A DNA stretch of 38,904 nt from Nitrospirota bacterium (GTDB lineage: Bacteria > Nitrospirota > Thermodesulfovibrionia > Thermodesulfovibrionales > UBA6898): positions 1 through 38,904 of the forward strand of contig JAKAGF010000001.1 in NCBI GenBank assembly GCA_021825805.1, in the 5' to 3' direction. This document shows, in pieces, positions 3,016 to 20,922 of the stretch; the stretch's first letter is position 1, and each line of letters opens with the position of its first letter. A model generated the notes under the pieces. That model searched no databases. It saw only the letters and a program-made list of their open reading frames with translations, and was not told where the DNA came from. Position numbers and translations under genes: made by a program.

Positions 3016-3310
3016 GACCCTCTTCTTTTCGGCTATGAAGTCTTTCTTGATCGTCCGGGGCGTGACGTGAACCGGCCGGCCACAGCGATGAGGGGAATAT
3101 TGTAACGCGGCGGAATGCCGCTGTCAAAAGACAACAGCCGATCATCCCTCTTTTCGGAATCAGGCGGGAGCACGGCCGCGCAATTACGGGCACGCCCCTT
3201 AGCGTTTCAGTTTTTTTATTGAATTTTGGCTGTTCTCCATATTATCATTTTATAGCTGCTCATACGACAACAACCATAGAGACAGCAGCTTCAATCTCAG
3301 GACGGTCAAC

Positions 3311-6166
3311 ATAAAAAGTCTCAAAAGAAAGTTTTTCTGGATCCTCCTCGCCGGGGTTGTCTTCTTCTTCGGTATTCTGACCTTTCTGATACTTCATCGG
3401 GAAAAGAGGCTGATCCTCAACATCTACAAGCAGGAAGCCCTCATGACAGTTAACGTGATAGCCGACCAAATCATCCACCTGATGGCCGAGAAGAACCCCG
3501 GGGCAGCCGCCGAGAAGATCGACGCATACAACAAGGCAGGCAAAATAAAGATAGGCGTCGCAGGGCCGGACGGTCTGCCCGCGTTTCATACCGATATCGT
3601 CATCCCTGCTGCCTATTTCAAGGCGCATGAGGAGCGTTTTGTCGCATCAGACAGCGACTATGTCTTTTTCAAGCCTCTTGCCAATACGAAGAACTGCCAC
3701 GGATGTCACAGCGCCGCAGACAAAACCCGGGGTATGCTCGCCATCAAGGGCTCCCTGGCACAGGCCGACAAAGAGGTCGCCGATACCGCCAAGCGGCTAC
3801 TGATCCTTGCCGTCATCATCGGCCTGGCCAGCGAGGTCTTTCTCCTGGTGGTTTTGCGAAAAACAATCCTGAAGCCTGTTGAACAGCTCAACGAAGGGGC
3901 TGCGCTCCTGCAGGCAGGCAGGCTTGACCACCGAATACCCATCACCGGCGATGATGAGATCGGGTCCCTGGCAGCCTGTTTTAACAGGATGACGGAGAGC
4001 ATTCAGAAGTCCCACGTTCATCTGGAAGACGCCATGCGCCAGCGGACTACGGAACTCCGGGTGATAGCGGAACTTTCAATGAAAGTATTCAAGGGCAACC
4101 TCAGCGCAAACGCCATCATTGAGCAGTTTCTCGCCTCCATAACAGGAAGTTTCGGGTTCGGCTACGCTGCCCTCTGTCTCGTGGATAAAGAGACAGGGCT
4201 CCTGTCCCAGGAATTCAGCAAGGGGATAAGCCAGGGGTTCTGTTCCATGGAGGTATCCATGGCCAGCGAGCACATCCTCACCAGGACGATACGGGAGGCA
4301 AGGGCGGTCATCAGATCAGCCGGAGACATCGGCATACCCGATGTCTTTACGAACGTGGCTATCGTTCCCCTTCTTTCCCACCAGCGGCGGCGCTGCAGGG
4401 AGATCAACCTCTGCGCCCACGAGGATTGTCCTGCCCATGCTAATGAAGACGACCGATGCTGGCTCATCAGCGGCACGCTCTGCAGAAGCCCCCAGGCGGT
4501 TGCAGGGAAGGAGAAAATCTACGGCTGCCTCCACTGCGATGTCTTCCCGGTCCTCGGGGTCCTCATTGCGGGCCGAAAGGATGAGGTCCCGGACTCCTCC
4601 CTGCACTCACTCGAGATCATCGGATCAGAGATCGCCTCAGCCATCGAGAACCATCGGTTTATCGACGCCAAGAAAAACGACATAGCCAAGCTGATCAGGC
4701 TCCATGACATATCAGTCGAATCCCTGCAGAACCCGGGGAAGACGCTGACAACGTCGATCGTTTCGTCGGTAATGGCTTTTTCGAATGTCGACGCGGCTAT
4801 GCTCCTGCTTGCGGAAGACAACAGCACGCTGCGTCTCGCTGACGCCTCGGGCATTGACACGGACGGCCTTCCCTCCATTATCCCGTCCGCCGATTCCTTC
4901 GTCTGGACAGCCATCAGGGAGGACCGTCCCGTGGAGACCCTAAAGATGGCCGAGTTGTCCTGTTTCGAGGAGATCATCACACGCGAAAGTTTCCTCTACG
5001 CCGCCTCCGTGCCCCTTCGGTTCAAGGAAACGGTCTTCGGCTGCCTCGCCCTTTTCAGGAGGCGGGACTTCTTCATGACCGACTCTGAAAAGGCGGTTAC
5101 GCTGCTCTTCGCAAGCCAGGCGTCTGCTGCCCTCAATACGTCGAGGCTCTTTTCTTCGGTAAAGGCTGAACAGGAATTCTCCGACGCCATCTTCAATTGC
5201 GCGGCAAGCGGCATCATGGTCCTTGACCGCGAGGGGCGGATTCTCAAGATCAACGGCATGGGCGCGGAGATACTGCGCATCGACGCGATAGTCGCCCCTG
5301 GCTGGAAGATCACGGACCTGTTCCCGGAGCTTGAGGACGTACTCCTGTTCGGTCTCGGCATCGGCAGGGAGGTGAATATCTCCTGCCCCGACGGAACTAC
5401 GATACCCATCGGTTTCTCCAACTCCCCCCTCTTCGACGCGCCTGACGGAAAAATGGGGATCATCGTACTGTTCCGCGACCTCACCGAAATAAAAAAGCTG
5501 CAGGAGGAATTGAGAAGAAAGGAGCATTTCGAGGCGATGGGCATGGTCCTCTCCGGGGTGGCGCACGAGATAAGAAACCCGCTCTTCGGCATCTCCTCCA
5601 TCGGGCAGATCCTTGACCGGGAGATCGACATCCCCCAGTACAAGTCCCTTATCCAGGCGATGCTCAAGGAAACAGAACGGATGAAGCGGCTGCTGGAGGA
5701 GCTCCTCCTCTACACGCGGCCCGCGCGTCTTGATATCAAAGAGGTGGACCTCGGCAATCTCTTCGAGGATATGCGCCATTTTGTCAGCGGCAAGAGGGAC
5801 GACATCACCCTCACCGTTAAGATGCCCCCGCGTCTCGCTGTTTCCGCTGACAAAGACAAGCTAACCCAGGTCTTTCTGAACCTCCTGAACAACGCCATCG
5901 ACGCGGCGCGTCACGCCATCACCCTCTCCGCCTGGAAGCAGGGGAACAATGTGCGAGTGGAGATCGCGGACGACGGGACAGGCATACCCGAGGAAAATCT
6001 GCAGCGCATATTCGATCCCTTTTTCACGACAAAAAAGGGAGGGACGGGCCTCGGGCTCCCGATCTGCAGAAAGATCATCGAAGATCACGGCGGCGCCATC
6101 GAGGTCCGCAGCAACGCCGGCAGGGGGACTACGGTGATCGTGATCTGTGCGGCGCCGGAGGCCTGA
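3311..6166 (+). CDS. Multi-sensor histidine kinase (TM - periplasmic CxxCH haem-c-type domain - TM - HAMP - GAF with Cys-rich insert - GAF - PAS - HisKA - HATPase)
   Basis: The ORF track gives 3443..6166 (907 aa). Motifs seen: NCHGCH (CxxCH) between two hydrophobic helices, a HAMP-like segment after helix LLILAVIIGLASEVFLLVVL, a PAS-like FNCAASGIMVLDREGRILKING, H-box SGVAHEIRNPLFGI, N box LLNNAIDA, and G boxes DDGTGIP and GGTGLGL. The same frame stays open back to the TAG at 3200. Upstream of M3443 it encodes a signal-anchor helix (KRKFFWILLAGVVFFFGILTFLIL) with no ATG/GTG/TTG. ATA at 3311 preceded by AGGA (3299-3302) is the best start candidate. The start coordinate is therefore uncertain (3311 or 3443). 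Confidence 0.85.
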   Translation: MKSLKRKFFWILLAGVVFFFGILTFLILHREKRLILNIYKQEALMTVNVIADQIIHLMAEKNPGAAAEKIDAYNKAGKIKIGVAGPDGLPAFHTDIVIPAAYFKAHEERFVASDSDYVFFKPLANTKNCHGCHSAADKTRGMLAIKGSLAQADKEVADTAKRLLILAVIIGLASEVFLLVVLRKTILKPVEQLNEGAALLQAGRLDHRIPITGDDEIGSLAACFNRMTESIQKSHVHLEDAMRQRTTELRVIAELSMKVFKGNLSANAIIEQFLASITGSFGFGYAALCLVDKETGLLSQEFSKGISQGFCSMEVSMASEHILTRTIREARAVIRSAGDIGIPDVFTNVAIVPLLSHQRRRCREINLCAHEDCPAHANEDDRCWLISGTLCRSPQAVAGKEKIYGCLHCDVFPVLGVLIAGRKDEVPDSSLHSLEIIGSEIASAIENHRFIDAKKNDIAKLIRLHDISVESLQNPGKTLTTSIVSSVMAFSNVDAAMLLLAEDNSTLRLADASGIDTDGLPSIIPSADSFVWTAIREDRPVETLKMAELSCFEEIITRESFLYAASVPLRFKETVFGCLALFRRRDFFMTDSEKAVTLLFASQASAALNTSRLFSSVKAEQEFSDAIFNCAASGIMVLDREGRILKINGMGAEILRIDAIVAPGWKITDLFPELEDVLLFGLGIGREVNISCPDGTTIPIGFSNSPLFDAPDGKMGIIVLFRDLTEIKKLQEELRRKEHFEAMGMVLSGVAHEIRNPLFGISSIGQILDREIDIPQYKSLIQAMLKETERMKRLLEELLLYTRPARLDIKEVDLGNLFEDMRHFVSGKRDDITLTVKMPPRLAVSADKDKLTQVFLNLLNNAIDAARHAITLSAWKQGNNVRVEIADDGTGIPEENLQRIFDPFFTTKKGGTGLGLPICRKIIEDHGGAIEVRSNAGRGTTVIVICAAPEA

Positions 6167-7186
6167 CTACGCCCTCTTCAATACCTCGCCGGCGATGGAT
6201 GTGAGCGGGAGGACCATGTCAACAACGCCTCCTTCCGCGGCAGCCCGCGGCATGCCGTAGATTGCCGACGTCGCCTCGTCCTGGGCGATGGTGAATCCGC
6301 CCTGCTCTTTGATAACTCCCATTCCACGCGCTCCGTCAGAGCCCATTCCGGTTAAAAGCACGCCTATCGAGCGGCCTCCAGCGCGCTCGCCCACGGAGCG
6401 GAACAGCACGTTGACCGAGGGCCTGTGGATCTCGTCCATCGGTTCTATGTCCAGCCGCACTTTATAGCCGCTCCCTGTCGTTCTGACGGTCATGTGAAGG
6501 CCGGCAGGGGCTATGAGGGCTGTCCCGGGCTCGACTGCGTCACCTTCTTCAGCCTCTCTGACAGCGATTGAAGACGTCGCATCCAGCCTCTTCGCCAGTG
6601 GAGCGGTAAAGCCGCGCGGCATGTGTTGAACGATTAGAAGCCCGAAGGATATCTCATGCGGGAACTTCGGAAGGATCATATGAAGCGCCATCGGACCCCC
6701 TGTGGACGCTCCCATGGCCACGATATCAACAAGACCCTTTGTCCTCCCCCGGTAAAGCTCTGCTTCCCGCGTGGCGATCCGCAGCGGCCTGCCCCCGGCT
6801 ATGGACTTCACCTTCCCTATGATCTCCTTCGCAAGATCGAAGAAGTCCATCATGCCGGTCGAAGACTTGTCCACAAAATCCATCGCCCCCATCTCAAGGG
6901 CCTTGAGCGTCAGTTCCGCCCCATCCCGCGTAAGTTGCGACAGCATGAGAACCGGGGTGGGCAACTCATCCATAATCGCCCGGAGGGTCTCTATCCCGTC
7001 CATCTCAGGCATCATCACGTCAAGGGTAATGACATCCGGCTTCAGCGTTCGGACCTTTTCCAGCGCCTCCCTGCCCGAACAGGCAAGGCCGACGAGTTCG
7101 ATATCAGGATCAGACTGAAATATCCTCTGAAGGGCCTTGCGTACAAAGGCGGAATCATCAACAGCAAGAACTCTTATTCTGCGCAT
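6167..7186 (-). CDS. cheB: Chemotaxis response regulator protein-glutamate methylesterase CheB
   Basis: It has a REC domain (RVLAVDDSAFVRKAL, DVMMPEMDG) and a methylesterase domain (GASTGGP, LTGMGSDGA, IAQDEATSAIYGMP). I moved the start to ATG 7186 (MRRIRVLAVDD). The track start at 7435 would overlap the upstream gene by ~190 nt. Confidence 0.92.
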   Translation of the reverse strand: MRRIRVLAVDDSAFVRKALQRIFQSDPDIELVGLACSGREALEKVRTLKPDVITLDVMMPEMDGIETLRAIMDELPTPVLMLSQLTRDGAELTLKALEMGAMDFVDKSSTGMMDFFDLAKEIIGKVKSIAGGRPLRIATREAELYRGRTKGLVDIVAMGASTGGPMALHMILPKFPHEISFGLLIVQHMPRGFTAPLAKRLDATSSIAVREAEEGDAVEPGTALIAPAGLHMTVRTTGSGYKVRLDIEPMDEIHRPSVNVLFRSVGERAGGRSIGVLLTGMGSDGARGMGVIKEQGGFTIAQDEATSAIYGMPRAAAEGGVVDMVLPLTSIAGEVLKRA

Positions 7187-7241
7187 GCGGTCGCATATCC
7201 TTTCAGGAACAGACTGTCGTCGCCAGGGGACCTCTCTTCCG

Positions 7242-8396
7242 TCACTCCCGCGGCCCGCGCCTCTCCATCTCAGCCAGCCCGAGACGAGCAGCCTGCCGCA
7301 CTTCCTCCTCGGGATCAGACTGCATCTTTGCGAGCGCGGCGCGGGCCCGAGCCATGTCCAGCGCTCCGAGAGAAAGAGCGACCTCTGTCCGCACCTCAGG
7401 ATCTTCATCTTCAGCAAACTGCAGAAGGGCCACATTCTGTCCCGTCATGCTGAGCAGCTTCGCCAGGACAACCCGGTGCGGTCCCGCCGACGCCCTGAGT
7501 TCATCCACAATGCTGCAGAGGGCCCTCCTTCCCATGCCCCACAGCCCTTCGATGGCATACTCCTGAAGCTCATCATCCTTGAGCCCGTCAATCATATAGG
7601 GGATAACCGCAAAGTCCCGCGACCAGCAGAGCGCCACGAAGGCATATTTTTTTATATCAGGGTCCGGGTTTTTGAGCATCTCGATCATCGTCGTCACGAG
7701 GCTGGCAAAATACTCCGGGTTCGGCCTGATGCGCTCCCTGCCGGCGATGGTGACAATCGCCCTGAGAGCGGCTTCCCTGAACCGCGGTTTGCGGACACAC
7801 GCGGCAAGATGCCCGATGGACTCCCGGTTGCCGGCCCGTTCGATCGCCTGAAGCGCCGGCGCATCGAGGCCCTCCCGGTCGAGACATTGGTAGAGTATAT
7901 CAAGCGCCTCCGGGCCGCCCATCTCCCCAAGGGCGTGGACAGCCGCCATGGCAACCCACGGATCATCCTGAAGCGCTTCCCAAAACACGCCCAGGGCAGC
8001 GCTGTCGCCGATCTTTCCCAGGGCCTCCACGCAGGCTGCGCGCACATTGATATCCTCGTCTGCAAAAGCGGCGATGAGGAGGGAGACGCTGCCTGTATCC
8101 CTGATTGCGCAGAGCATATTCGCCGCAAACAGCCGCACCTCCCGGTCCTCGTCCCGGATGAGCGCCTCAAGATGCGGCAGCGCCCTGGGTCCCAATGAAA
8201 CAAAGACCTCCATCGCCGCTGTGCGCGCATCGGCATTATCGTGATTCCGCACGCCCTCCGCAAGACAGGCGACATAGGAATACTCGTCATAGGACTGCAG
8301 GGCCGCGGAAGCCCGCCTCCTGGCCCACCAGTCCCGGCCCGCCAGACCCTCTATGATTTCCCGGACCCTTTCACCCGCATCCCTCATGGGTCGCAA
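7242..8396 (-). CDS. HEAT-repeat (PBS-lyase HEAT-like) protein, paralog 1
   Basis: 384-aa ORF built from repeated D-x-D/E-x-x-VR-x-x-A-x-x-ALG-x-IG units (e.g. DEDREVRLFAANMLCAI, DEDINVRAACVEALGKIG, DPEVRTEVALSLGAL, EEEVRQAARLGLAEM). It is collinear with ORF 9265..10407. The start is either TTG 8396, abutting the cheR stop, or ATG 8387. Confidence 0.8.
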   Translation of the reverse strand: MRPMRDAGERVREIIEGLAGRDWWARRRASAALQSYDEYSYVACLAEGVRNHDNADARTAAMEVFVSLGPRALPHLEALIRDEDREVRLFAANMLCAIRDTGSVSLLIAAFADEDINVRAACVEALGKIGDSAALGVFWEALQDDPWVAMAAVHALGEMGGPEALDILYQCLDREGLDAPALQAIERAGNRESIGHLAACVRKPRFREAALRAIVTIAGRERIRPNPEYFASLVTTMIEMLKNPDPDIKKYAFVALCWSRDFAVIPYMIDGLKDDELQEYAIEGLWGMGRRALCSIVDELRASAGPHRVVLAKLLSMTGQNVALLQFAEDEDPEVRTEVALSLGALDMARARAALAKMQSDPEEEVRQAARLGLAEMERRGPRE

Positions 8397-9284
8397 TCAG
8401 GTTCGCTGCTGTCCCGCATCCGCCTGCGCTTCACTGTTCTTCCGGTATACGATCACCTTCTCGCGGTACTCGGGGGTGAACAGGTTCGTCTTCTGGATGA
8501 GGCTCTCCGCCGACCCGATGAACAGGTAGCCCGTTTCCGTGAGTGCGCTGCTGAAGTTACTGACGAGCCTCTCCGTAGCCGGATCGCTCATATAGATCAG
8601 GACATTCCTGCAGAAGATGACATCCACGGGCGCAAGGCCGGCGTAGAGGCCGCTGTCCAGGATATTTGCGTGCCTGAATTCCACATTCTTCGCGTACGCC
8701 CTCTTCAACTCGTAGCGGCCGTCTTCCACGGTAAAGTATCTTTGGATTCTGCTCATGTCGCCATTGAGGCTTCTGAAGGAGTTTGCCGTATAGGTTGCGG
8801 CATGCGCCTTGCTGACCGCCGTGCGATCGATGTCAATGCCGATGATCTCCACATCCCAGTTCCAGGCGAAGAGCCCGCTTTCGTGGATGAGGATGTTAAG
8901 GGAATAGGCCTCTTCGCCGCTTGAGGAAGCGAGAGACAGAATCCTGAGTCGCTGTTCTCCGCCCTGTTTCTCCCTCTTTATGTCCTGCAGTATCTCCGCC
9001 AGGGCGTCCAGTTGTGGACGCTCGCGAAAGAAATAGGTCTCGTTGTTGGTAATGTGAGACGCGAGAATGAAGAGTTCCTCGCGCGTCGGGTCCGCGACAA
9101 TAAAGTCATAGTATTCCTTGTATGTTGAGAGTCCCAGGATGCTCAGCCGATGGGAGACCTTTGTATGGAGGGTGAGCCTCCGGTCTCCCCGCAGCAGGAT
9201 GCCGAATTCCCGCTCGATGAGATCGCGAAGGGACGAAAACTCCTCCGCGCTCATTATTGTTTTTTTATCGGGAAAGGCCGTCAT
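8397..9284 (-). CDS. cheR: Chemotaxis protein-glutamate O-methyltransferase CheR
   Basis: 295 aa. It has the CheR N-terminal helical region (EEFSSLRDLIEREFGILL), a SAM-binding region (RILSLASSSGEEAYSLNILI) and VIFCRNVLIYM. It overlaps the upstream HEAT gene by 20 nt. Confidence 0.9.
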   Translation of the reverse strand: MTAFPDKKTIMSAEEFSSLRDLIEREFGILLRGDRRLTLHTKVSHRLSILGLSTYKEYYDFIVADPTREELFILASHITNNETYFFRERPQLDALAEILQDIKREKQGGEQRLRILSLASSSGEEAYSLNILIHESGLFAWNWDVEIIGIDIDRTAVSKAHAATYTANSFRSLNGDMSRIQRYFTVEDGRYELKRAYAKNVEFRHANILDSGLYAGLAPVDVIFCRNVLIYMSDPATERLVSNFSSALTETGYLFIGSAESLIQKTNLFTPEYREKVIVYRKNSEAQADAGQQRT

Positions 9285-10407
9285 TGCCGGCGCCCCCTTT
9301 CATCAACTGCAGGGAAAGCACTGCCGCTGCCTTCACCTCGTCAACAGGGTCCGCGGACAGCTTCACGAGGAGGGCCTTGGCCTCCGGCGTATTTACAGTC
9401 CCCAGGGCAAGGGCAGCCTCGGTCCTCACCTCGGAATCCGCATCGCCGGCAAACTCCGGAAAGGCATGGACTTCACCGGTCATGGAAAGAATTTTGGCCA
9501 ATATCCCCCTCTGCCCTCCCCGGCCCCTCAGCGCCCCGATAATGTCAGGAACAGCATCCCTGCCCAGAGCCATAAGACCGTTAATGGCATGTTCCTGTAG
9601 CCCGTCATCGCCGAGCGCCGCGATCAGGCATGGCGCTGCATCCGCCTTCCCGGCCCAACTGAGGGCGATGAGAGCGGCCCTGCGGACAGCAGCGTCGGGT
9701 GACTGCACAAGGTCCTTAAGGACCGGCAGCGTCTCCGCGATAAATAAGGGGGATGGCATCACGCATTCCCTTTCCGCGATGGTCACAAGCGCCCTGAGGG
9801 CCAGCCCGCCGATCTCGCCCCGGCCCACATACTGCATGAGTTGTTCCACGGAGGCGCGGTCTCCGGCCCGTTCAAGGGCCTCGCAGGTCATGCCCCGGTA
9901 TTCCCCACGGACGAGGAACCGGTGGAGGACCGTCCGCGCCTCATCCCCTCCTATCCTGCCAAGGGCGTCGACAGCCGCCATAACAGACCATGGGGAATCC
10001 TCAAGCCTTCGGGCGAGGACGCCGACCGCCCTCGCGTCGCCCATCTTCCCGAGGGCCTCGATTGCGGCTATACGCACGTTCACATCCGTATCCTCGAGGG
10101 CCTCGATGAGGGCCGTCAGGGCGTCCTTGTCCCCGATATCTCCGATCAGATTCGCTGCAAAAATCCTGATGTCAGCATCACTGTCCGAAAGGAGTGACAC
10201 CAGGAAGGCCGTTGCCCCGGAACCCAGGGCCCTGAATACCTCCATGGCGATATTCCTCGACAGATGATCCTCACCCTTCCTGAGCCATGATTCGAGGACA
10301 GCGAGGTGCCGCTCCTCATGGCCCGCTGCAAGCTCTTCGATCTCCTTCTTCCGCGACCACCAGTCTTTCGTCCTGAGCCTGTTCAGCCTGTCCTGGTTCT
10401 CGTCCAT
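9265..10407 (-). CDS. HEAT-repeat (PBS-lyase HEAT-like) protein, paralog 2
   Basis: 380-aa ORF with the same repeat grammar (DSDADIRIFAANLIGDIG, DTDVNVRIAAIEALGKMG, DSEVRTEAALALGTV, DPVDEVKAAAVLSL) and the same N-terminal KDWW/RDWW motif as paralog 1. The ATG at 10407 is preceded by GGGGGAGGA. Confidence 0.8.
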   Translation of the reverse strand: MDENQDRLNRLRTKDWWSRKKEIEELAAGHEERHLAVLESWLRKGEDHLSRNIAMEVFRALGSGATAFLVSLLSDSDADIRIFAANLIGDIGDKDALTALIEALEDTDVNVRIAAIEALGKMGDARAVGVLARRLEDSPWSVMAAVDALGRIGGDEARTVLHRFLVRGEYRGMTCEALERAGDRASVEQLMQYVGRGEIGGLALRALVTIAERECVMPSPLFIAETLPVLKDLVQSPDAAVRRAALIALSWAGKADAAPCLIAALGDDGLQEHAINGLMALGRDAVPDIIGALRGRGGQRGILAKILSMTGEVHAFPEFAGDADSEVRTEAALALGTVNTPEAKALLVKLSADPVDEVKAAAVLSLQLMKGGAGNDGLSR

Positions 10408-10428: not shown

Positions 10429-12939
10429 CTACGCCTCTATGCCCTGAATCGCCTTGAAGGCCTCACAGGTCATGCAGTTCCTGAGCTTTGAGCGGAAATC
10501 TCCCTGCTGGCTGCCCTGGCACCACGTTCCTGCTATCTGCCAGCAGCGATGTTCCCCGACATTATATGCCGGGCATTTATGCCGGGAGCTGGTCGGACAG
10601 TTCATGATATCCCAGCACCTCTTGTTGCCGTTGGAATGTATGATAAAGGAGCTGATGGAGTATTGGAGGTTTTCTATCTGAAAGAGAGTCTCCTCCGACA
10701 TGCCCACCATGTCCTTTGACAGATTGAGGTTCTGGCTGGATATGTTGCTCATGCCCTCCATGGCCTTTACTATCGTCTCGCCGCCGAGCTTCTGTTCGGC
10801 GGTCGAGTTGGCGACCCCCTGCGTCATGGTGCTCATGATCTCCACCGCCTGGACGATCTGCCTGGCGCCGCCTACCTGTTCCTTGACCGCGGTCCCGACT
10901 TCGTGGACCAGGGTCTTCATGCGTTCAATCACCTCGCGCATCTGCCTTCCGCCGATAGCCTGCTCCCGGGTGGCGGTGTTCACTTCCTGCACCATTTTGT
11001 TCATCCTGTCGATTGACTGCCGAACGCTGCCGGCTCCCTTTGCCTGGGCCTGAGCCGCGGCCGCGACCTCATCCGACGACGTATTCATATCAACCACATA
11101 CTTCATCACCTGCTCAATGGCCGTGTTCAGTTCTCCGGCGGACTTCGCGATCCCCTGTATCACGTCGGAACTCTCCTTCATGGACGTGATGATCGACGAG
11201 AAGGCGTCCCTGCTGTTCTCCGCAAGGGTTATGCCGTCCTTGCCCTCGCGGTATGTTTCTTCGGTCGCCTTGATCGCAGTCACTGTTTCCTGCTGCACCT
11301 TCTTGATCACCCCGCCGATCTCTTTCGTCGCCTCCATGGAACGCTCCGCCAGCTTCCGTATCTCCTCCGCAACAACGGCGAAGCCCCTGCCGGCGTCACC
11401 AGCCCGCGCCGCTTCTATGGCCGCATTCAGCGCCAGAAGGTTCGTCTGGTCGGCGATCTCGTCGATCACCTCCACAATCGATCCTATCTCCTCTGAGCGT
11501 TTCCCGAGGTTCTGGATGATCTCCATCGTCTTTTCCGTTGTCTTGCCGATGTTCTGAAGGCTTTCCATACTCCGGTATATAGCCTTGCCTCCCTCCTCGG
11601 CCTCGCTGAATGCGTCCCGGCTCAGCTTGTTGGCGCCGCCGATCCTTCCCACAACCTCCTTGACGGTCCGCGTCATCTCCTCGATCGTCCCCGAGGTCTC
11701 CACTACCATGCTCTTCAGGGAATCAGCGCTCCTGGCAATCTGCTCAATGGACGACAGGAGGTTCTCAACAGTCATCGATGTGTCACTTACCGAATCGGTC
11801 ATCGACGACGTATTCCTCGCCGTCTGGTCCACGGACACCAGCATCTGTTCAATCGTCGCCGAGGTCTCCTCCACCGAAGCGGCCATGCTGTCGGCGCTCT
11901 TGCCGACCTGCGCGATGGATGCGGCCATCTCATTAATGGTCGCGGATGTTTCGTCCACGTTCGTTGCCAGCGCCTCGGCGTTTTTTGCCGCCTTGGAGAT
12001 GGAGACCGACATCTCTTCCACCGACGACGTCGTCTCATCCGTTACCGCCGCCTCCTCCTGCGCCGCCTTCGAGAGCTGGGTCGAGCCCCTGGAAACCTTG
12101 TCGGCATTCAGGGCGACATGGTACGAGGAGGCCACCGCATTCTTCACCATGCCCTGGAGGTTCTTCACCATATCGTTGAAGTAACCCGCAAGCATCCCGA
12201 CCTCATCCTTGCTCTTCATGTCCAGCTCCTGCGTCAGGTCTCCCGCGCTTATCTTCTTCGTCGTCTCGGCCAGCTTCATCAGCGGCCGGGTGATGCTCCG
12301 GCTGATAATGAGTCCGGCGGCAACGGTGAGCAGCGCCGCGACTATCAGGACCCCTGCCATCACTCGGATGGTCTGTCCGATTACCGCATGGGCCTTTCCC
12401 TCCATGGCGTCAATCCGCTTGTTGCCCTCATCAGCAAAGTCTTTTGCGGTTGTTTCGAGGCGGTGTATCTCGTCCTTGTATTCCGTTATCGCGGCATTGC
12501 CCTCCTGCGGCGTCTTTATCTTCTTTTCCTCAACCTGTCTGAAGACCTTGAGGAACCCAGCTTCATAATTAGCGCCCTCAGTCCTCATCGTCTTGACTAC
12601 CGCTTTGTCCTGCTCGGTAATCGCTGCCTTGTCTATGTCATCGAGCCGTTTCTTTAAATGGTCGAGCTGCTCGTCCCATTTCTTGCGGTACTCAGCGACC
12701 TTCTCCGGCTTTTCGATGTTCAGGAATATGTCCTTTTCGTACCGCCGCAGGCCGAGGACATTCGCGCGTGCGCGCGCGGAATGCTCCGCGATATTCCCGT
12801 CTATTTTCAGCATCCTTGTCATCTGCCTCGAAACCGTATCTACGCCCCAGTAAGCGGTGCCGCCCAGGACGAGCAGCAACAACAGCAACAGCGTGAACGC
12901 GATACCCAGCCTGACCCCTATTTTCACATTCTCAAGCAT
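10429..12939 (-). CDS. Methyl-accepting chemotaxis protein (4-helix-bundle sensor, HAMP, extra-long signalling domain, C-terminal 7-Cys module)
   Basis: The track ORF is 10429..13041. I moved the start to ATG 12939, which has AAGGAGG just upstream and is followed by TM1 ([27 protein letters not shown]). The periplasmic region is 4HB-like ([11 protein letters not shown]), followed by TM2 and HAMP. The MCP hairpin tip reads [41 protein letters not shown]. The C-terminus is [10 protein letters not shown]...NCMTCEAF. Confidence 0.93.
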
Positions 12940-12995
12940 CCTGACCTCCTTGCAAAATATCACCGAATTTCGTAATGGACCGCCGGCTCGGAATG

Positions 12996-15356
12996 TCACC
13001 CCACTCCCTGGATGACCCGATAAGCCTGACACGTCATGCAATTTTTAAGCTTCGAACGGGCATCGCCCTGCTTCAATCCCTTGCACCAGGTCCCGCTGAT
13101 GCGCCAGCAGCGGTCTTCTTCGGCATTGAAGGCCGGGCACTGCTGCCGCGAGCCCGTCGGACAGTTGAGGATGTCCCAGCAGCGGTGGCCGCCGTTCGCG
13201 CTGATCCTGAAGTTGCTCATTGTATACTGGAGGTTCTCAATCTGGAAGAGGGTGTCCTGGGCAAGATCAACCATGCCTTTTGAAAGCCTGAGGTTCTCGG
13301 TGGATATCTGGTTCATGCCTTCCATGGCCCGGGTGATATTCTCGCCGCCGTGTCGCTGCTCTGCCGTCGCGTTGGCCACTCCCTGCGTCATGGCGCTCAT
13401 CGTCTCCATCGCCTGCGCGATCTGCTTTGCCCCCCCAACCTGTTCCTTCACCGCAAGGCCTACCTCATGCACGATCGACCTCAGGCGGTGCACCATCTGA
13501 CGTATTTCATGACCGCCCTTTGACTGCTCCGCGGCGGCGATGTTCACCTCCTGGACCATGCGGTTCATCTTGTCGAGCGAACCGCGGATCGAGGCCGCGC
13601 CGTTTGCCTGCTCCTTAACGGAGACCGTCACCTCGTCGGCGGACGCGTTCATGTCCATCACATACTTCAGCGCCTGTTCAATCGCCGTGTTCAGCTCTCC
13701 GGCTGACCTGGCTATCCCCTCTATCACCTCGGAACTCTGCTTTACAGACGTAATAATCGCCGAAAAGGCGTCGCGGCTGTTTTCCGCGAGCAGGATGCCT
13801 CCCTTGCCTTCGCGGTAGGTCTCTTCCGTTGCCTTGATCGCAACCCCGGTCTCCTCCTGCACCTTCTTGATCACCCCGCCGATCTCTTTCGTCGCCTCCA
13901 TGGAACGCTCTGCCAGCTTCCGTATCTCCTCCGCAACAACCGCGAAGCCCCTGCCGGCGTCACCAGCCCGCGCCGCTTCTATGGCCGCATTCAGCGCCAG
14001 AAGGTTCGTCTGGTCGGCGATCTCGTCGATCACCTCCACGATCGATCCTATCTCCTCTGAGCGTTTCCCCAGCCCCTGGATTATCCCCATCGTTTTTTCG
14101 GTCGTCTGTCCGATATGCTGCAGGCTCTCCATGCCCCGATAGATCGCCTTGCCGCCCTCTTCAGCTTCCTGGTACGCCTCCTGCCCGAGCCGGCTCGCGC
14201 CCCCTATCCTGCCCACGACCTCCTTGACGGTCCGGGTCATCTCCTCGATAGTCGACGTCGTGTCGCCCACCATGTTCTTGAGCGAGTCGGCGCTCCGCGC
14301 TATCTGTTCGACCGACGCCAGCAGGTTCTCGACCGTCAGCGACGTTTCGCTCACAGCGTCGGTCATCTGCGCCGAGTGCTTCGCCGTCTGCTGTACCGAC
14401 GCAATCATCCCTTCGACCGTCGCCGTAGTCATCTCTACCGACGCCGCCATCTGTTCGGCGCTCACGCCCACCTGCTCGATAGAGGCGGCCATCTCGGCGA
14501 CCGTCGAGGAGGTCACCTCGACGTTCTCCGAAACCGCCTCAGCGCCCTTCGCCACCTGCCCGATAGACACTGCCATCTGTTCCATGGAGGACGTCGTCTC
14601 GTCCGTAGCGGCCGCTTCCTTCTGCGACGCAGCGGCTATGGCATTTGAGTTGTCCGAGACCCGGCCGGCAACGTCCACCACCCTGAAGGCCGACTCGAGC
14701 GTCTGGCCGACCGTGCTCCTGAAACTCCCGATCATCCTGTCGATGTCCCGGCTCAACTCGCCGATCTCGTCGCCGGCGCCGGTGTCCAGAGTGCGGGAGA
14801 GGTCGCCTGCGGCCACCTTCTCCATCCCCTGCTTGAGCCGCTGAATAGGCCGATGGGCGAGCACCCTGAAGAGGACATAGACTATCAGGGAAACCGACAG
14901 GATCGTGCCGGCGGAAAGGAGCAGGACGATGAGCTGGGACCTGCGCAGCGCCCGATTGATATTATCGGTAGTGAAGACGATCCTGGCGGCGCCGACCTGC
15001 TCGCCGCCCTGCATGATCGGACTCGCGTACTCCCTGAGCTCCACGGCCCCCTCCTTCTGCTTCAATTGCGTGAGGGGCTTTCCGTCTTTGTCGAGAATCA
15101 CCGCATGGACGATATCGGCGTCACGGGACGTGATGTCAGCCACGTAATTTTCGAGGTAGGCGAAATTATAGCTCAGGATCGGCTCGGCAGAGATACCCGC
15201 GAGAAACTTTACCAGATTGTCGCCCCTCTTGTTCAGTTCGGAAAGGAAAAGACGACGCTCGTGCATCCCTATGCTCACGATCGTCACCACCGATATCAGG
15301 GCCATCGCAAGCAGGATGCCGGAAAGAAATTTTTTCGTTAATTTCCAGTTTTTCAT
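12996..15356 (-). CDS. Methyl-accepting chemotaxis protein (small periplasmic sensor, HAMP, extra-long signalling domain, C-terminal 7-Cys module)
   Basis: 786-aa ORF. It has TM1 ([20 protein letters not shown]), a ~120-aa periplasmic domain, TM2, HAMP ([40 protein letters not shown]), the same hairpin tip as the neighbouring MCP, and the C-terminus [10 protein letters not shown]...NCMTCQAY. Confidence 0.93.
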
Positions 15357-15421: not shown

Positions 15422-16282
15422 TCAGAGAGCGCCCGCCAGTCTGGCCGCCTGGCGGAGGTGATCATAGTCCCTGTCCGACACCGGAGAAAAAGCGGTAAGC
15501 TTCGCCGACCCCAGGACTTTCTCGGTCGCGGCTTCACCATGTTTGAGCTTGAGCAGCGCGGCCCTTACCTTCTCGGCTGTTGCTTTATTCAGCTTGTTCG
15601 TCGCAAATACCGGCCAGTTGGGAAAATAGTCGGTATACGAGACGATCTTGAGCTGATTCACATCCACCTTGTCCTTCATCTTTTCGAGATCGTCCTCGCG
15701 GATGCCGCCCGCATCAGCCGATCTGTTAAAGACCGCCATCGTGACGTTGTCATGCTTTTTCGCAAAGGGGAGTTTGATGAAATCCTTGTTGACATCGAGC
15801 CCCGCCTTGCTCAGCAGGAGCATCTGAAAGATATACCCGGCCGCTGAATCCTTTTCCACAAAGATGAGCTTCTTGCCCTTCAACTGCTGGATCTTGTCGA
15901 TGCCGCTGTCCTTGCGTGCGATGATGACGCCCCTGAACTTCGTCCCGCCTTTTTTTTCAGCGGAAAGGGCGAGCGGCTCGATCGCCGCATCCTTCTTCAG
16001 CTGCACATAGATAAGCGAATTGGCAAACCCCAGTTCCACCTGCCCCGCCTTCACCATGGCCTTGAACGTGTCAAAGTCCTTGGGCACGACGAGGGTCACC
16101 TGCTCGCCCGTCTCCTTGGACAAATACTCCGCAAGGGGTCTGAACATGGCGTTGAGTTCCACCGCGCCCAGGCGCGGGAGTATCCCCAGTTTGACTTCGG
16201 CCGACGAAAGTCCCTGCGCCGCCAAGAGCACGAACACAATAATAAGAGCACGAATAAGTCTGCTTCCAACTGCGTTGATCAT
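15422..16282 (-). CDS. Periplasmic solute-binding protein, PhnD-like (phosphate/phosphonate-binding fold); no cognate ABC transporter genes nearby
   Basis: I moved the start to ATG 16282, which has AGGAG upstream. The signal peptide is MINAVGSRLIRALIIVFVLLAAQGLSSA. The mature part (KLGILP...FRPLAEYLSKETG...ELGFANSLIYV...FRGVIIARKDSGI...AAGYIF) looks like the PhnD/Phosphonate-bd family as I remember it. Confidence 0.7.
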   Translation of the reverse strand: MINAVGSRLIRALIIVFVLLAAQGLSSAEVKLGILPRLGAVELNAMFRPLAEYLSKETGEQVTLVVPKDFDTFKAMVKAGQVELGFANSLIYVQLKKDAAIEPLALSAEKKGGTKFRGVIIARKDSGIDKIQQLKGKKLIFVEKDSAAGYIFQMLLLSKAGLDVNKDFIKLPFAKKHDNVTMAVFNRSADAGGIREDDLEKMKDKVDVNQLKIVSYTDYFPNWPVFATNKLNKATAEKVRAALLKLKHGEAATEKVLGSAKLTAFSPVSDRDYDHLRQAARLAGAL

Positions 16283-16322
16283 GTGATCTCCTTTCGGGTG
16301 TGACAAAATAACGGCAGTTTCT

Positions 16323-16841
16323 TTACCCCTGTTCCACATCACTCGTCTCGAATTTTTCGCGCCGCAGAAGCTTTTCGAGATCGAGCAGAATGACAAGACG
16401 CTCCTTCAGCTTGCAGACTCCAGTCAGGTAGTCGGTGTCCACTTCGAGCACCTCCTCGGGCGGCGCCTCCACAACGCCCGCCGGGACCCGGATAACGTGC
16501 GAGACGGCATCTACAAGCAGTCCGATCACCTTGCTGCCCACCTCCGTGACGATGATCCGCGAACTCTTGCTCAGGCCGCAATCCTCCAGTTTCAGCCGCT
16601 TCCTGAGATTCAAAACAGGGAGCACCCTTCCGCGAAGGTTGATGACGCCTTCCATATAGGCCGGCGAGTTCGGCACCCTCGTTATGCCCGCAACGCGGAC
16701 GATCTCCCTGACCTGGCTGATGGGGACTCCGTATTCTTCCCCCAGGTTGAAGGTGATGATCTGGGATTCCTTTAACTCTTCCTTGTAATCGGCCAGGATC
16801 TCCTCGGCAAGCCCCGCCGCGGGCAATTTCATGTTAGACAT
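16323..16841 (-). CDS. cheW: Chemotaxis coupling protein CheW
   Basis: The CheW-like domain reads IITFNLGEEYGVPISQVREIV...VINLRGRVLPVLNLRKRL...RIIV...GLLVDAVSHV. The start is set at ATG 16841 with GGAGG 9 nt upstream. The track start (TTG 16871) is also possible. Confidence 0.9.
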   Translation of the reverse strand: MSNMKLPAAGLAEEILADYKEELKESQIITFNLGEEYGVPISQVREIVRVAGITRVPNSPAYMEGVINLRGRVLPVLNLRKRLKLEDCGLSKSSRIIVTEVGSKVIGLLVDAVSHVIRVPAGVVEAPPEEVLEVDTDYLTGVCKLKERLVILLDLEKLLRREKFETSDVEQG

Positions 16842-16874
16842 GTTCACGTCCCTCCTTATCGTTGCAGTCAAGGA

Positions 16875-18503
16875 CTACTCGCACGCGTTCACCTTTTCCT
16901 GACAGTTCACTTTGCCGTTCCAGAACGAAGTGACATCTATGATCAAGACGACCCTTCCGTCTCCGAGTATGGAAGCCCCCGCTATGCCGAATGATTTCCC
17001 AAAGGTATCGTCAAGGGGCTTGATGACGATCTCCTGCTGCCCCCTGAGCCTGCTGACGGCAAGGGCAACGCGTTTTTCTCCACTGCCGAGTATCACAAGA
17101 TATAACCGCCGCGGCCGTTTGCCGGAAAGGCCGAAAAACTCATCCAGCCTGATGACCGGCATGACGCGGTTTCTGAACCGGATGACCTCCCGGTTGTTGA
17201 TGATATGGATCGCCTCGTCGCGGACCTTGATGCTCTCGTCCACGGCGCTCAGGGGGATCGCGAATACCTCGCCCCCGGCCTCTGTCATGAGGGCCGGAAT
17301 GATGGCAAGACTGAGGGGGAGCTTTATGGTGAACAGCGTCCCCTTCCCGGGAACGCTGTCAGCGGAGACCTGCCCGTTGAGGTTTGAAATGTTCCTGCTG
17401 ACCACATCAAGGCCGATACCCCGGCCCGAGACATCGGTCGCCTCCTGTTTAGTCGTAAACCCGGCGGAAAAGATGAGGGAAAGGGCCGCCTCCTTGCTGA
17501 GCTGATCATCGGGCCCGATCAGCCCTTTCCTTGCCGCGGCCTCCCGTATCCGCCCAACGTCCATTCCCCTGCCGTCATCCATGACTTTTATGATCACGTA
17601 GTTGGATTCCTGTCCCGCTGAAAGGGTGATCGTGGCTGAGTGGGGTTTGCCGAGACCGGATCTCTCGCGGGGCGGCTCTATGCCGTGATCCACCGCATTT
17701 CTGATGATATGCAGCAGCGGCTCTTCCAGTTCGTCGATTATCGTCTTGTCGAGTTCGGTGTCTTCCCCCTCGAATGCAAGTCTGATTTCCTTGCCCTGTG
17801 CCTTGGCGAGGTCCCGCACCATCCGGGGGAACTTGTGAAATACCGTGCTCACGGGAAGCATGCGGGCCCTCATGATGCCCTCCTGAAGGCCCGCGATCAT
17901 CTTCCCCATCGCATCGAGCCCGTCCTTCAGCTCTTTCGTCGTCGCCTTGTTGCGAACCTCTCCCCGTATCTGGGTTTCGATCTGGTTCAGCCTTGTCTTG
18001 TAGATGACCAACTCCCCGACCAGGTTGAGAAGGTCATTGAGTTTCTTGAAGTCAACTTTAATGGTATCCGTCTTCGTGCCGAGATATGCAGCCGGGTCCG
18101 CCGGTTGTATGTCGAGGCCGGACGCGCCTCCGTTGAGACATTCCCTGATCAACCCGATGCCCTCAGTCAGTTCGGGTTTTGAACGGGGGTTCTCCCCGAT
18201 CTCGCGGAGGGTGTTCCGGATGATGTGGGCGCTGTCAAACAAAAGCCCCATCGCCTGTCCCAGCTCAAGATCATTGTCGAGCACCTTTTTCAGGATGCCC
18301 TCAACCTCGTGCACAAAGGCCTTCAGGGACTCATATCCCATCATCCCGGCATTGCCCTTGAGCGTGTGGAGCGACCCCAACGTACCGGTGACGGTGTCCC
18401 TGTTGAAGCCGTTTTGCTCCAGCGACATCAGGGCTCCGTCGAAGGCCGCAAGATGGCCGTCGGCGTCATCAAGGAAGTCTTTTATGAGCTCTGAGAATTC
18501 CAC
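16875..18503 (-). CDS. cheA: Chemotaxis histidine kinase CheA (P1-P3-P4-P5; no P2 domain)
   Basis: The Hpt/P1 domain carries the phospho-His context GSLHTLKGNAGMMG. P3 is IKVDFKKLNDLLNLVGELVI. The P4 HATPase has HIIRNAVDHGIE, DDGRGMD and GRGIGLD. A CheW-like P5 domain sits at the C-terminus. I set the start at GTG 18503 (VEFSELIKDFLDD), 10 nt after the cheY stop. The track start at 18611 would overlap cheY by ~100 nt. Confidence 0.92.
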   Translation of the reverse strand: MEFSELIKDFLDDADGHLAAFDGALMSLEQNGFNRDTVTGTLGSLHTLKGNAGMMGYESLKAFVHEVEGILKKVLDNDLELGQAMGLLFDSAHIIRNTLREIGENPRSKPELTEGIGLIRECLNGGASGLDIQPADPAAYLGTKTDTIKVDFKKLNDLLNLVGELVIYKTRLNQIETQIRGEVRNKATTKELKDGLDAMGKMIAGLQEGIMRARMLPVSTVFHKFPRMVRDLAKAQGKEIRLAFEGEDTELDKTIIDELEEPLLHIIRNAVDHGIEPPRERSGLGKPHSATITLSAGQESNYVIIKVMDDGRGMDVGRIREAAARKGLIGPDDQLSKEAALSLIFSAGFTTKQEATDVSGRGIGLDVVSRNISNLNGQVSADSVPGKGTLFTIKLPLSLAIIPALMTEAGGEVFAIPLSAVDESIKVRDEAIHIINNREVIRFRNRVMPVIRLDEFFGLSGKRPRRLYLVILGSGEKRVALAVSRLRGQQEIVIKPLDDTFGKSFGIAGASILGDGRVVLIIDVTSFWNGKVNCQEKVNACE

Positions 18504-18513
18504 GCGCCGGCTG

Positions 18514-18927
18514 CTATGCGCTACCCAGTTTTTCGAGGAACGGCGACTTCTTGATGATAACCTTCTCGATGATCTCGTAGAGCACGTGGGGCTTGAACGG
18601 TTTGACCACATAACCCCATGCCCCGAGCTTCAATGCCCTGAGGGTGTCCTCCTCCTTGCCCTCGGTGCTGATGACAATGATCGGGATCTGCCGGTAGAGA
18701 TTCTCGGCCTTGAGCTTTTCCATGAACTGCAGACCGTTCATCACCGGCATATTGATGTCGAGGAGGATAAGATTGAAATCGCTCTCCCTCGACAGGACGT
18801 CGAGGGCCTCCAGGCCGTTCATGGCGTCGACTATGCGGCAGCCGTTGTACCGGTTAAGCACGAGCCGGTACATGGAGTGTATGAGCTGAGAGTCATCAAC
18901 GATCAGCACTTTGCCTAATGTATTCAT
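18514..18927 (-). CDS. cheY: Single-domain response regulator CheY
   Basis: 137 aa. Motifs are VLIVDDSQLIH, the phospho-acceptor context LLDINMPVMNG, ISTEG and VVKPF. Confidence 0.88.
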   Translation of the reverse strand: MNTLGKVLIVDDSQLIHSMYRLVLNRYNGCRIVDAMNGLEALDVLSRESDFNLILLDINMPVMNGLQFMEKLKAENLYRQIPIIVISTEGKEEDTLRALKLGAWGYVVKPFKPHVLYEIIEKVIIKKSPFLEKLGSA

Positions 18928-18960
18928 ATTCCGCTCCTATGAGTTGCTGTCATGCAGTTT

Positions 18961-19350
18961 CTATACCTTTTGCGCCGGCGGGACGGGAATGCCGAGCGTC
19001 CTGACCTTCGAGATCAGGTGTGAGATGTCTATGGGCTTCTCATAATAATGAAACGCCCCCCGCCGGTATGCATCCTCCTCCATCTCCGCGGAACCGTATG
19101 CCGTCATGATGATCACCTCGGTCCGCGGGCTTGCCTTCTTCACATAGCTCAGAAGCTCAAGCCCCTCGATACCGTACATGCCGCTTAAACGTATGTCCGC
19201 GATAACGAGATCGAATGTATACCGTAAAAGCGCCTCTTCAGCCTCCTCAATCTTGTCGCTGGTGATGACCATTGTATCCTTGCTGCTCAGAATGTGCGAG
19301 AGCGTCATCAGGATAGTCTCCTCGTCATCAACGATGAGAATCTTTTTCAT
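18961..19350 (-). CDS. Stand-alone receiver (REC) domain protein
   Basis: 129 aa. Motifs are ILIVDDEETI, VIADIRLSGMYG, IIMTAYGS and YYEKP. It is the first gene after the sigma-54 promoter. Confidence 0.85.
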   Translation of the reverse strand: MKKILIVDDEETILMTLSHILSSKDTMVITSDKIEEAEEALLRYTFDLVIADIRLSGMYGIEGLELLSYVKKASPRTEVIIMTAYGSAEMEEDAYRRGAFHYYEKPIDISHLISKVRTLGIPVPPAQKV

Positions 19351-19599: not shown

Positions 19600-20922
19600 T
19601 CAACCGATGTTGTAGTTCTTCAACTTCTCGTTCAACGTGGAGCGGGCCACGCCGAGCGCCTGGGCCGCCCTGGTCCGGTTACCGCCGGTCAGTTCGAGGA
19701 CCCGTCGGATATGGGCCTCCTCGACTTCCGTAAGCAACAGCGCCGAGGCCTTCACTTCCGCAGCAAGCGGCAGATGCAGATGCTTCAGCCCGATGGTCTC
19801 GTCCTGGCAGAGGATAAGAGAACGCTCGATGACATTTCGCAGTTCCCTGACATTCCCCGGCCATGCATACGAACTCAGGGCATCCGCTGCCTCGGGGGAA
19901 AAATCGGAGACCTGCTTCTTGCCCATCGCCTTTTTCATCTCGTCCAGATAATACTCGGCTATGAGGGGTATATCTTCGGGCCTCTCCCTCAGCGGCAGCA
20001 GCGCCAGCGGCATGACGTTGAGGCGGTAATAGAGGTCCTCCCTGAAGGCCCCCTGCCTGATCAGAGCCACGAGGTCCCTGTTGGTTGCGGCAACAACGCG
20101 CACATCCACAGAGATGTCCCTCGTGCCGCCGAGCCGCTTCAGGGTCCGTGATTCCAGGACCCTCAGGACCTTGGCCTGCGCGCCGAGAGGCATGTCGCCG
20201 ATCTCATCGAGGAAAAGCGTGCCGCCGTCGGCAAGCTCGACGAGCCCTTTCTTGGTCTTCCTGGCATCCGTGAAGGCGCCCACTTCATAGCCGAACAGTT
20301 CACTCTCGAGTATCTGCTCAGGGATGGCGGCGCAGTTGATCTCGACAAAGGGCTTGTCGCGCCGCATGCTTAAGACATGTATGTTCCGGGCAACGATCTC
20401 TTTTCCGGTCCCGGTGTCTCCCCGGATCAGGACGGTCGTCGTCGCATTTGAGGCAAGGAGGTTGATCATGTGAATGAGCCCCTGGATGTGCGTGCTCCTG
20501 CCGACAAGGGGATACGCAGACCCCCTGAGGAGTCCCGCGCCCTGGCGCATCCTCCGCAGACCCACGCCTTTTTCGACGATCACCGCAAGCTCATCCAGAT
20601 CAATGGGCTTCTGGAAATAATACTCTGCGCCCAGCTTCATCGCCCTGACCGCGTCGCTGATCTCGCTATAGCCTGTCATCACGACGACCGAAATCTCGGG
20701 GTAATCCTTCTTGATCCCCTGAAGCACCTCGAACCCATGCCGGTCCGGAAGACGGAGATCGAGGATGACGATGTCTGGAAGCTCCCGCAGAGCCACGGCA
20801 AGGCCGTCGTTTCCGTTCATTGCCGTAATGACGCCGCAGCCCCTGCCTTCAAAGAATGCCCTGAGACTCTGAGAGATCGTCTCATCGTCCTCGATAATGA
20901 GGATGAGAGGCTCGCTCATCAC
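19600..20922 (-). CDS. Sigma-54-dependent response regulator (NtrC family: REC - AAA+ - Fis-type HTH)
   Basis: The REC domain has LILIIEDDETI and VILDLRLPDRHG. The AAA+ domain has Walker A GDTGTGKE, a GAFTGA-type loop written ESELFGYEVGAFTDA, Walker B GTLFLDEIG, and RVVAATNRDL / FREDLYYRL. The C-terminal HTH reads GGNRTRAAQALGVARSTLNEKLK. The start is GTG 20922 or ATG 20919; both overlap the nrdR stop. Confidence 0.9.
   Translation of the reverse strand: MMSEPLILIIEDDETISQSLRAFFEGRGCGVITAMNGNDGLAVALRELPDIVILDLRLPDRHGFEVLQGIKKDYPEISVVVMTGYSEISDAVRAMKLGAEYYFQKPIDLDELAVIVEKGVGLRRMRQGAGLLRGSAYPLVGRSTHIQGLIHMINLLASNATTTVLIRGDTGTGKEIVARNIHVLSMRRDKPFVEINCAAIPEQILESELFGYEVGAFTDARKTKKGLVELADGGTLFLDEIGDMPLGAQAKVLRVLESRTLKRLGGTRDISVDVRVVAATNRDLVALIRQGAFREDLYYRLNVMPLALLPLRERPEDIPLIAEYYLDEMKKAMGKKQVSDFSPEAADALSSYAWPGNVRELRNVIERSLILCQDETIGLKHLHLPLAAEVKASALLLTEVEEAHIRRVLELTGGNRTRAAQALGVARSTLNEKLKNYNIG

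Follow-up and report, generated by a model that had tools for sequence, protein, structure and literature searches.

A seven-cysteine insert related to the two-CW domain in a GAF domain of a Nitrospirota histidine kinase, and its possible role as a sensory input

What a bacterial signalling system can perceive depends on its input domains, a large number of which are still uncharacterised. A locus in a 38,904-nt stretch of a Nitrospirota genome (GCA_021825805.1, contig JAKAGF010000001.1, positions 1 to 38,904; hereafter the window) raises the question of what one such domain is and what it might do. A sensor histidine kinase encoded there carries a cysteine-rich segment inside the first of its two GAF domains (GAF1), and a preliminary description of the sequence had claimed that the same seven-cysteine module forms the tails of two chemoreceptors (methyl-accepting chemotaxis proteins, MCPs) of the same locus, that the module is rare, and that the transcriptional and chemosensory branches are both driven by a single cue. 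We find that the kinase segment is, with high confidence, a two-CW domain nested in GAF1. The two-CW domain is catalogued and functionally blank, and occurs on histidine kinases, diguanylate cyclases, chemoreceptors, CheW-domain proteins and sigma-54 activators. The explanation that we favour on balance is that the nested copy serves as a metal-centre sensory input, a reading which the evidence below makes fairly probable.

Family identity of the kinase insert

Positions 4394-4537 of the forward strand translate to CREINLCAHEDCPAHANEDDRCWLISGTLCRSPQAVAGKEKIYGCLHC, a segment of 48 residues that corresponds to residues 318-365 of the kinase. Translation confirmed the spacing of its seven cysteines (C1 to C7) as first described, C-x5-C-x4-C-x9-C-x7-C-x14-C-x2-C, as well as that of both MCP tails, C-x5-C-x7-C-x9-C-x7-C-x14-C-x2-C, and the kinase differs from the tails solely in the C2-C3 spacer; four residues is the usual length of this spacer among multi-domain two-CW proteins. 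Common to the insert and the tails are the CP after C3, the RCW at C4 and the GT before C5. Both MCP tails have the two Cys-Trp dipeptides (CW, at C1 and C4) after which the family is named, whereas the kinase reads CR at C1 and CW at C4, in agreement with the earlier description, and within its orthologue clade the residue that follows C1 is R, K or S. When kinase inserts, MCP tails and stand-alone proteins are aligned, all cysteines are invariant, together with the P and A after C3. Exactly three copies of the module were found in the window by a six-frame scan with a hidden Markov model (HMM), of which the count alone is informative as the HMM was partly built from these sequences.

The relationship was assessed with the NCBIfam model NF045718 ('two-CW domain-containing protein'), which has 80 positions and a curated cutoff of 35 bits and was built independently of the window. 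Taken alone, the tails of the two chemoreceptors, MCP1 and MCP2, pass this cutoff with 47.7 bits (E 1.5e-12) and 42.6 bits (E 6e-11), respectively, and the kinase insert reaches 29.5 bits (E 7.1e-7) over profile positions 20-74 of 80, which is under the cutoff. In a single BLASTP comparison the insert matched the MCP1 tail with an E-value of 1e-11 at 32% identity. These two matches uphold the claimed homology of the kinase segment to the MCP tails, and by its E-value the insert is a real but diverged relative of the two-CW family, not a cutoff-level member. It shares with the family the seven-cysteine pattern, the CP after C3, the CW at C4, the GT before C5 and the terminal CxxC. It departs from it in that most of the module matches listed are stand-alone proteins, whereas the insert is nested in a GAF domain, with four residues between C2 and C3, an R in place of the first W and a score under the cutoff. 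No Pfam family matches any of the three modules, even at E<=10.

The 32% identity and the different spacer mark the three copies as old paralogues of different subfamilies and not as products of a recent local duplication.

Nesting in GAF1 and conservation of the insert

The kinase open reading frame (3443..6166, +; 907 aa from the first canonical ATG) was delineated from the list of reading frames, Pfam and NCBIfam. A Pfam scan of the whole frame gave no match across residues 200-430. With the insert in place, GAF1 matches, among the GAF families considered (Pfam PF13185, GAF_2, and PF01590), only positions 102-136 of the GAF_2 profile, directly after the insert, with an E-value of 0.046. Once the insert was excised in silico, the joined flanks matched GAF_2 over positions 7-136 of 136 (E 2.7e-5; 24.8 bits, compared with a gathering score of 28.6). 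In an AlphaFold2 (AF2) model of residues 193-430, the scaffold has predicted local distance difference test (pLDDT) values of 70-87, and the insert lies between the strand VAIVPL (model residues 113-118) and the strand GVLIAG (180-185), with the C-terminal helix starting at 192. A Foldseek search of the scaffold against the PDB returned 34 matches at E<=1e-3, all of them GAF-type with a Foldseek probability of 1.0 and with TM-scores on the target of up to 0.76, including PDE5A, PDE2, NLH1, PtsP, NifA, the GAF-A domain of DosS and a dual-sensor kinase. The AF2 scaffold and the exclusively GAF-type structures among the significant matches identify the GAF fold, and the flanks VAIVPL and GVLIAG, described at first as resembling beta-strands, are strands of that fold. 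The excision test, the AF2 scaffold and Foldseek together bear out the proposed nested domain insertion. The structure prediction that had been suggested for GAF1 and its insert succeeded for the scaffold; the insert itself came out at low confidence.

The insert enters GAF1 at the turn of its last beta-hairpin, which corresponds to about position 101/102 of the GAF_2 profile. The N-terminal part of GAF1 (4115..4393, +; placed by the GAF_2 match after excision, AF2 and Foldseek) runs to the strand VAIVPL and the sequence SHQRRR, and is followed by the nested two-CW domain from C1 to C7 with its degenerate first CW (4394..4537, +) and by the C-terminal part of GAF1 with the strand GVLIAG and the C-terminal helix (4538..4648, +; placed by the GAF_2 match directly after the insert and by AF2). 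Around it, Pfam places a HAMP domain (3854..4006, +; PF00672, E 1e-12, residues 138-188), a second GAF domain, GAF2, which has no insert (4745..5134, +; GAF_2, E 1.8e-10, residues 435-564), a PAS domain (5183..5488, +; PAS_9/PAS, residues 581-682) and the kinase core (5537..6142, +), composed of HisKA (PF00512, residues 699-759, E 3.3e-11) and HATPase_c (PF02518, residues 803-900, E 3.8e-29), which identifies the protein as a histidine kinase. Its best partial NCBIfam matches are AtoS/ZraS-type kinases. The order of the whole protein is a first transmembrane helix, a periplasmic domain with a CxxCH motif, a second transmembrane helix, HAMP, GAF1 with the two-CW domain, GAF2, PAS, HisKA and HATPase_c.

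A genome scan recovered 13 loci with orthologous kinases, 40-77% identical, from metagenome-assembled genomes (MAGs) of Nitrospirota/Thermodesulfovibrionales. The insert is present in all 13 of these kinases, at the same place, with 48 residues and identical cysteine spacing. Its mean pairwise identity is 0.71 (0.66 when the cysteines are left aside), compared with 0.47 for the N-terminal and 0.64 for the C-terminal flank; the constraint on the insert is at least equal to that on its host GAF. The earlier concern that the insert might be absent or variable in close orthologues is thus not substantiated, as it is kept in each of the 13 loci and in every GAF-spanning relative that we inspected. 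Insert-free orthologues were seen neither among the 13 loci nor among the best 150 of 208 representative proteins (50% identity clusters, E<=1e-3) from a HMMER search with GAF1 and its insert; the insert is the best-scoring part of this query, which biases the search, and the absence of insert-free relatives therefore does not prove a single origin.

Among the same best 150 of 208 representatives, at least 38 carry the flank signature of a GAF-nested module (GAF::two-CW). Excision of the module from nine proteins yielded a full-length GAF match in four, namely P0196 (40.5 bits), P0149 (36.7), P0152 (22.8) and P0157 (19.0), with P0196 and P0149 passing the GAF gathering score; the outputs of the excised GAF-nested proteins are HisKA/HATPase or GGDEF. 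P0008 combines GAF::two-CW with GGDEF and has its first CW intact. As a composite input module, GAF::two-CW is well established and under strong conservation; it is present in every orthologue and is reused in other histidine kinases and in GGDEF proteins.

These observations bear on the simplest alternative, that the cysteine spacing arose by chance or that the insert is the decaying, functionless remnant of an insertion. Its score under the family cutoff would fit such an origin, as would the alignment to NF045718 from C3 onward only and the loss of the first CW. On the other side stand the E-values obtained against the independently curated model and by BLASTP, the invariance of cysteines, length and spacing throughout the 13 orthologues, in which the insert is the best-conserved part of GAF1, and the occurrence of the same nesting with an intact first CW in distant proteins. 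At the level of sequence analysis, the family match and the conservation among orthologues lead us to reject this alternative, whose remaining probability we regard as negligible.

The nested copy lies below the NCBIfam cutoff, and GAF1 with its insert lies below the Pfam gathering score, so that annotation based on cutoffs would miss both. What is new here is the GAF-nested, sub-cutoff form of the two-CW domain; the family itself was already known, catalogued and widespread.

Distribution of the domain and its possible sensory role

The module is not rare, as had been supposed at first: besides being catalogued as NF045718, it is carried by multi-domain signalling proteins of at least 148 representative clusters, and small proteins that consist of it alone number more than 100. 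The module HMM detects it in 148 of the best 150 of the 208 representatives, and P0181, which the HMM missed, has a diverged nested module. The positions other than GAF-nested among these best 150 are N-terminal (24), internal (58), C-terminal (8) and tandem (9). A search with the module alone gave 214 matches, and nearly all of the best 120 are stand-alone proteins of 63-107 aa, a few of which, from Methanosphaerula palustris, Nitrospirota and Thermodesulfovibrionales, are entered as 'two-CW domain-containing protein'. Among the matches listed, the only named host is the methanogen Methanosphaerula palustris; the rest are uncultured MAGs from several phyla. In 154 instances from multi-domain proteins, aligned with hmmalign, C1-C4, C6 and C7 are conserved in 100% and C5 in 95%, the W after C4 in 99%, the P after C3 in 90% and the W after C1 in 68%.

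A Pfam census of 89 multi-domain representatives found HisKA in 30, HATPase_c in 28, GGDEF in 21, PAS families in up to 19, HAMP in 15, GAF in nine, MCPsignal and Response_reg in five each, CheW in four, Sigma54_activat in three, and HD and STAS in two each. This free combination with many output types is the behaviour of an input domain, and a sensory input role of one kind or another appears fairly probable to us.

Two complete two-CW modules stand in tandem in P0159, P0161, P0165, P0166, P0168, P0184 and P0259, and one full and one cut-down copy are found in P0167 and P0231. In Methanosphaerula palustris, two adjacent genes of 106 aa (L016:5253-5573 and 6001-6321) lie between histidine-kinase genes; one of them is named two-CW, and the second, of identical length, is likely its tandem paralogue. 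The neighbourhoods of stand-alone two-CW genes are mixed, with two adjoining kinases or a sigma-54 regulator and two without signalling neighbours, and do not discriminate between the hypotheses considered here.

As a working mechanism, we propose that a metal centre is ligated by the seven near-invariant cysteines together with an acidic residue conserved after C1. One or two iron-sulfur (Fe-S) clusters would be the likeliest candidates for this centre, and zinc the alternative. The centre would be oxidised, lost or ligated in response to redox state, O2, NO or reactive sulfur, upon which the small domain would re-order. The change could travel along the two central strands of GAF1 into its C-terminal helix and from there to GAF2, PAS and DHp, and would set autophosphorylation. 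The likely output of the kinase would be an NtrC-type sigma-54 activator response regulator encoded at the far end of the che cluster (19600..20922, -; Pfam Response_reg, Sigma54_activat and HTH_8), a candidate partner. The known partners of AtoS and ZraS are sigma-54 activators, and the AtoS/ZraS-like core of the kinase fits this regulator as its partner. On the MCPs, the two-CW domain at the cytoplasmic C-terminus would bias the control of CheA. The locus could in this way pass related cytoplasmic information to two branches, one transcriptional and one chemosensory, and the single cue shared by both branches that the preliminary description had postulated is plausible.

Sensing by an Fe-S or redox centre specifically is put forward more tentatively than sensing as such, as a possibility that may well fail. 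It is favoured by three indications, each of them weak: the methanogen and uncultured MAG hosts, the Cys-Pro together with the C-x5-C-x4-C spacing, and the presence of a single CxxC pair. A C-x5-C-x4/5-C spacing with Cys-Pro is, we presume, reminiscent of some Fe-S motifs, and we take it as a lead only. The proposed logic, in which a cysteine-ligated cluster reports O2, NO or redox state, resembles that of FNR, the PAS domain of NreB, WhiB-like proteins and the Rrf2-type regulators NsrR and IscR, although the module has no detectable homology to these sensors (it matches no Pfam family at E<=10 and no PDB sequence) and has seven cysteines as opposed to their three or four. Haem-binding GAF domains, as in DosS/DosT, and cyclic-nucleotide or bilin GAFs have in common with the kinase the GAF fold and its place upstream of the DHp/CA core; they hold their ligand in the GAF pocket, whereas GAF1 has a separate cysteine-rich mini-domain in its last beta-hairpin.

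Alternatively, the domain could be a sensor that has no Fe-S cluster and that responds directly to a transition-metal ion (Zn, Cu, Fe, Ni) or through thiol chemistry, in which oxidants or reactive sulfur would act on a disulfide or persulfide switch. The dense, invariant cysteines would suit such a sensor, and reactive sulfur would be a plausible cue if the closest-relative MAGs (Thermodesulfovibrionales/Nitrospirota) are sulfur-cycling, as we presume from the name of the order. There is also an analogy to the chemoreceptor zinc-binding (CZB) domain, a four-helix bundle with a 3His/1Cys site that senses Zn/HOCl through a Cys on MCPs and DgcZ. In outline CZB is alike, being a small cytoplasmic metal-binding domain at MCP C-termini and on diguanylate cyclases, but there is no sequence kinship (again, no Pfam family at E<=10), and the module is not a CZB member. 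The Pro after C3 and the aromatic residues after C1 and C4 suggest, as a weak inference, a fixed, folded metal site and not a floppy thiol switch. While our data do not separate this reading from an Fe-S sensor, we consider it quite improbable.

Several results weigh against a nested metal-centre input as we favour it. The insert scores under the family cutoff and has no first Trp. It and the MCP tails, at 32% identity and in different subfamilies, need not share a cue. With eight sequences in the alignment, AF2 gave the insert a pLDDT of about 40 and no usable fold; with a hybrid alignment of 127 sequences, blocks of 10 residues reached no more than 54-65, and the GAF part became worse since stand-alone C-terminal tails were aligned onto the last GAF strand, and Foldseek with this second model returned weak GAF matches and none for the insert. 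The module profile had no match among PDB sequences at E<=10, and a larger profile matched HAMP domains only, via its flanking columns, with no relative of the module among them. Literature searches by the domain name and by the keywords Cys-rich, Fe-S, GAF and chemoreceptor found no paper on the two-CW domain. The hairpin tip lies at the strand end distal from the signalling helix, which makes the coupling path speculative; the pairing of the kinase with the NtrC-type regulator is suggested by position and family; and signalling genes are often absent from the surroundings of stand-alone two-CW genes.

A still wider proposition is that the two-CW domain represents a previously uncharacterised class of cytoplasmic sensor for redox state or gases, with a cysteine-ligated (Fe-S) centre, which seems to be common among methanogens and uncultured lineages and is used as free protein, MCP tail and last-hairpin cassette of GAF domains, and that in this locus one redox cue drives sigma-54 transcription and chemotaxis. 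Taken as a whole, we regard it as possible though somewhat unlikely. If an Fe-S or other metal centre is bound, the domain would constitute a new sensor class and would explain how motility and gene expression could be tied to redox state in Nitrospirota of the Thermodesulfovibrionales type. The locus provides an entry point to this uncharacterised sensor family, with GAF-nested and MCP-tail forms and, in sister genomes, stand-alone forms occurring naturally.

The kinase N-terminus and the che cluster

The periplasmic sensor domain of the kinase contains CHGCH (3695..3709, +), read from the sequence as a CxxCH motif for c-type haem attachment. Its region matches PF21563 (Mcp40H-20_sensor, a haem-sensor family) weakly in Pfam (E 0.014), and the related kinase P0149 matches this family clearly with 36 bits. 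Both the motif and the match would fit a kinase that senses redox conditions on either side of the membrane.

The kinase frame is open for 80 codons 5' of the ATG at 3443 (3200-3445, +), and translation of 3203-3502 reveals there, in frame, the first transmembrane helix, FFWILLAGVVFFFGILTFLIL (3332..3394, +). No ATG, GTG or TTG occurs within these 80 codons. In the orthologue of locus L010 an ATG precedes the same helix, which is also found in the relatives P0005 and P0006. The true N-terminus thus probably lies further upstream than the ATG, and the kinase either uses a rare start codon or is affected by a start mutation or an assembly error. At the other end, the kinase frames of L011 (1250 aa), L012 (1091 aa) and L013 (1268 aa) are 180-360 residues longer than that of the window, presumably as hybrid kinases with extra C-terminal domains.

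Convergent with the kinase, the reverse strand encodes cheB (Pfam CheB_methylest and Response_reg), a HEAT-repeat protein (HEAT_2), cheR (CheR) and a second HEAT-repeat protein (HEAT_2) at 6167..10407. These are followed by the two chemoreceptors, identified by Pfam and NF045718: MCP1 (10429..13041, -) comprises a 4HB_MCP sensor, HAMP, MCPsignal and the C-terminal two-CW domain (cysteine module 10465-10617), and MCP2 (12996..15356, -) comprises HAMP, MCPsignal and the C-terminal two-CW domain (cysteine module 13029-13181). Next come genes for a PhnD-like binding protein, cheW, cheA and two single-domain response regulators (15422..19350, -; assigned by Pfam and synteny). In L001-L012, where the contigs reach, the order is conserved as kinase, convergent cheB-HEAT-cheR-HEAT, two-CW-tailed MCP, cheW, cheA and two single-domain regulators. 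In the window the cluster ends with the NtrC-type regulator, which among the orthologous loci was recovered at this end in L006 only.

In four sister loci a stand-alone two-CW protein of 69-75 aa (CWEFKKCG...CPAYPKGGRVCYLVAGTMCGG...C..C) is encoded within the che cluster, where it separates the MCP gene from cheW (L006:18346-18498, L007:13237-13389, L009:7949-8101 and L012:10262-10414, all on the minus strand). The window has no such gene; a second two-CW MCP and the PhnD-like binding protein (15422-16396) are found there instead. The two HEAT-repeat (PBS-lyase-like) proteins, at 7242-8396 and 9265-10407 (-), are paralogous; their genes alternate with cheB and cheR, an arrangement in which they are kept in the orthologous loci.

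This arrangement raises a further alternative, namely that the two-CW domain binds zinc for structural reasons and mediates protein contacts, as a tether or oligomerisation element and not a sensor, which would co-localise the kinase with the chemoreceptor array; the stand-alone two-CW protein, the HEAT-repeat proteins and CheR/CheB are candidate partners. Other MCPs carry tethers for adaptation enzymes at their extreme C-terminus, such as the C-terminal pentapeptides for CheR/CheB, and the two-CW copies of the MCPs have just this position. The presence of the stand-alone protein within four che clusters, the conservation of the two HEAT-repeat proteins, the tandem repeats of the domain within single proteins and the possibility that seven cysteines and one acidic residue could make two tetrahedral Zn sites all point in the same direction. 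Against a tether, the module has a single CxxC pair, while classical zinc ribbons and knuckles usually have two; it is paired with many outputs, often as the sole non-output domain at the N-terminus, which is the usual pattern of an input; its nesting in a sensor hairpin of a GAF domain would be hard to explain; and no partner was identified. We consider a tether unlikely and continue to favour a sensory input.

Two of the reading-frame starts in the cluster deserve mention. The frames of cheB (6167-7435, -) and MCP1 (10429-13041, -) both begin well 5' of the conserved domains and run into the preceding genes. In cheB the receiver domain starts from residue 88, and MCP1 shares 46 nt with the end of MCP2. 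The true starts are probably internal, at MRRIRVLAVDD... for cheB and at MLENVKIG... for MCP1.

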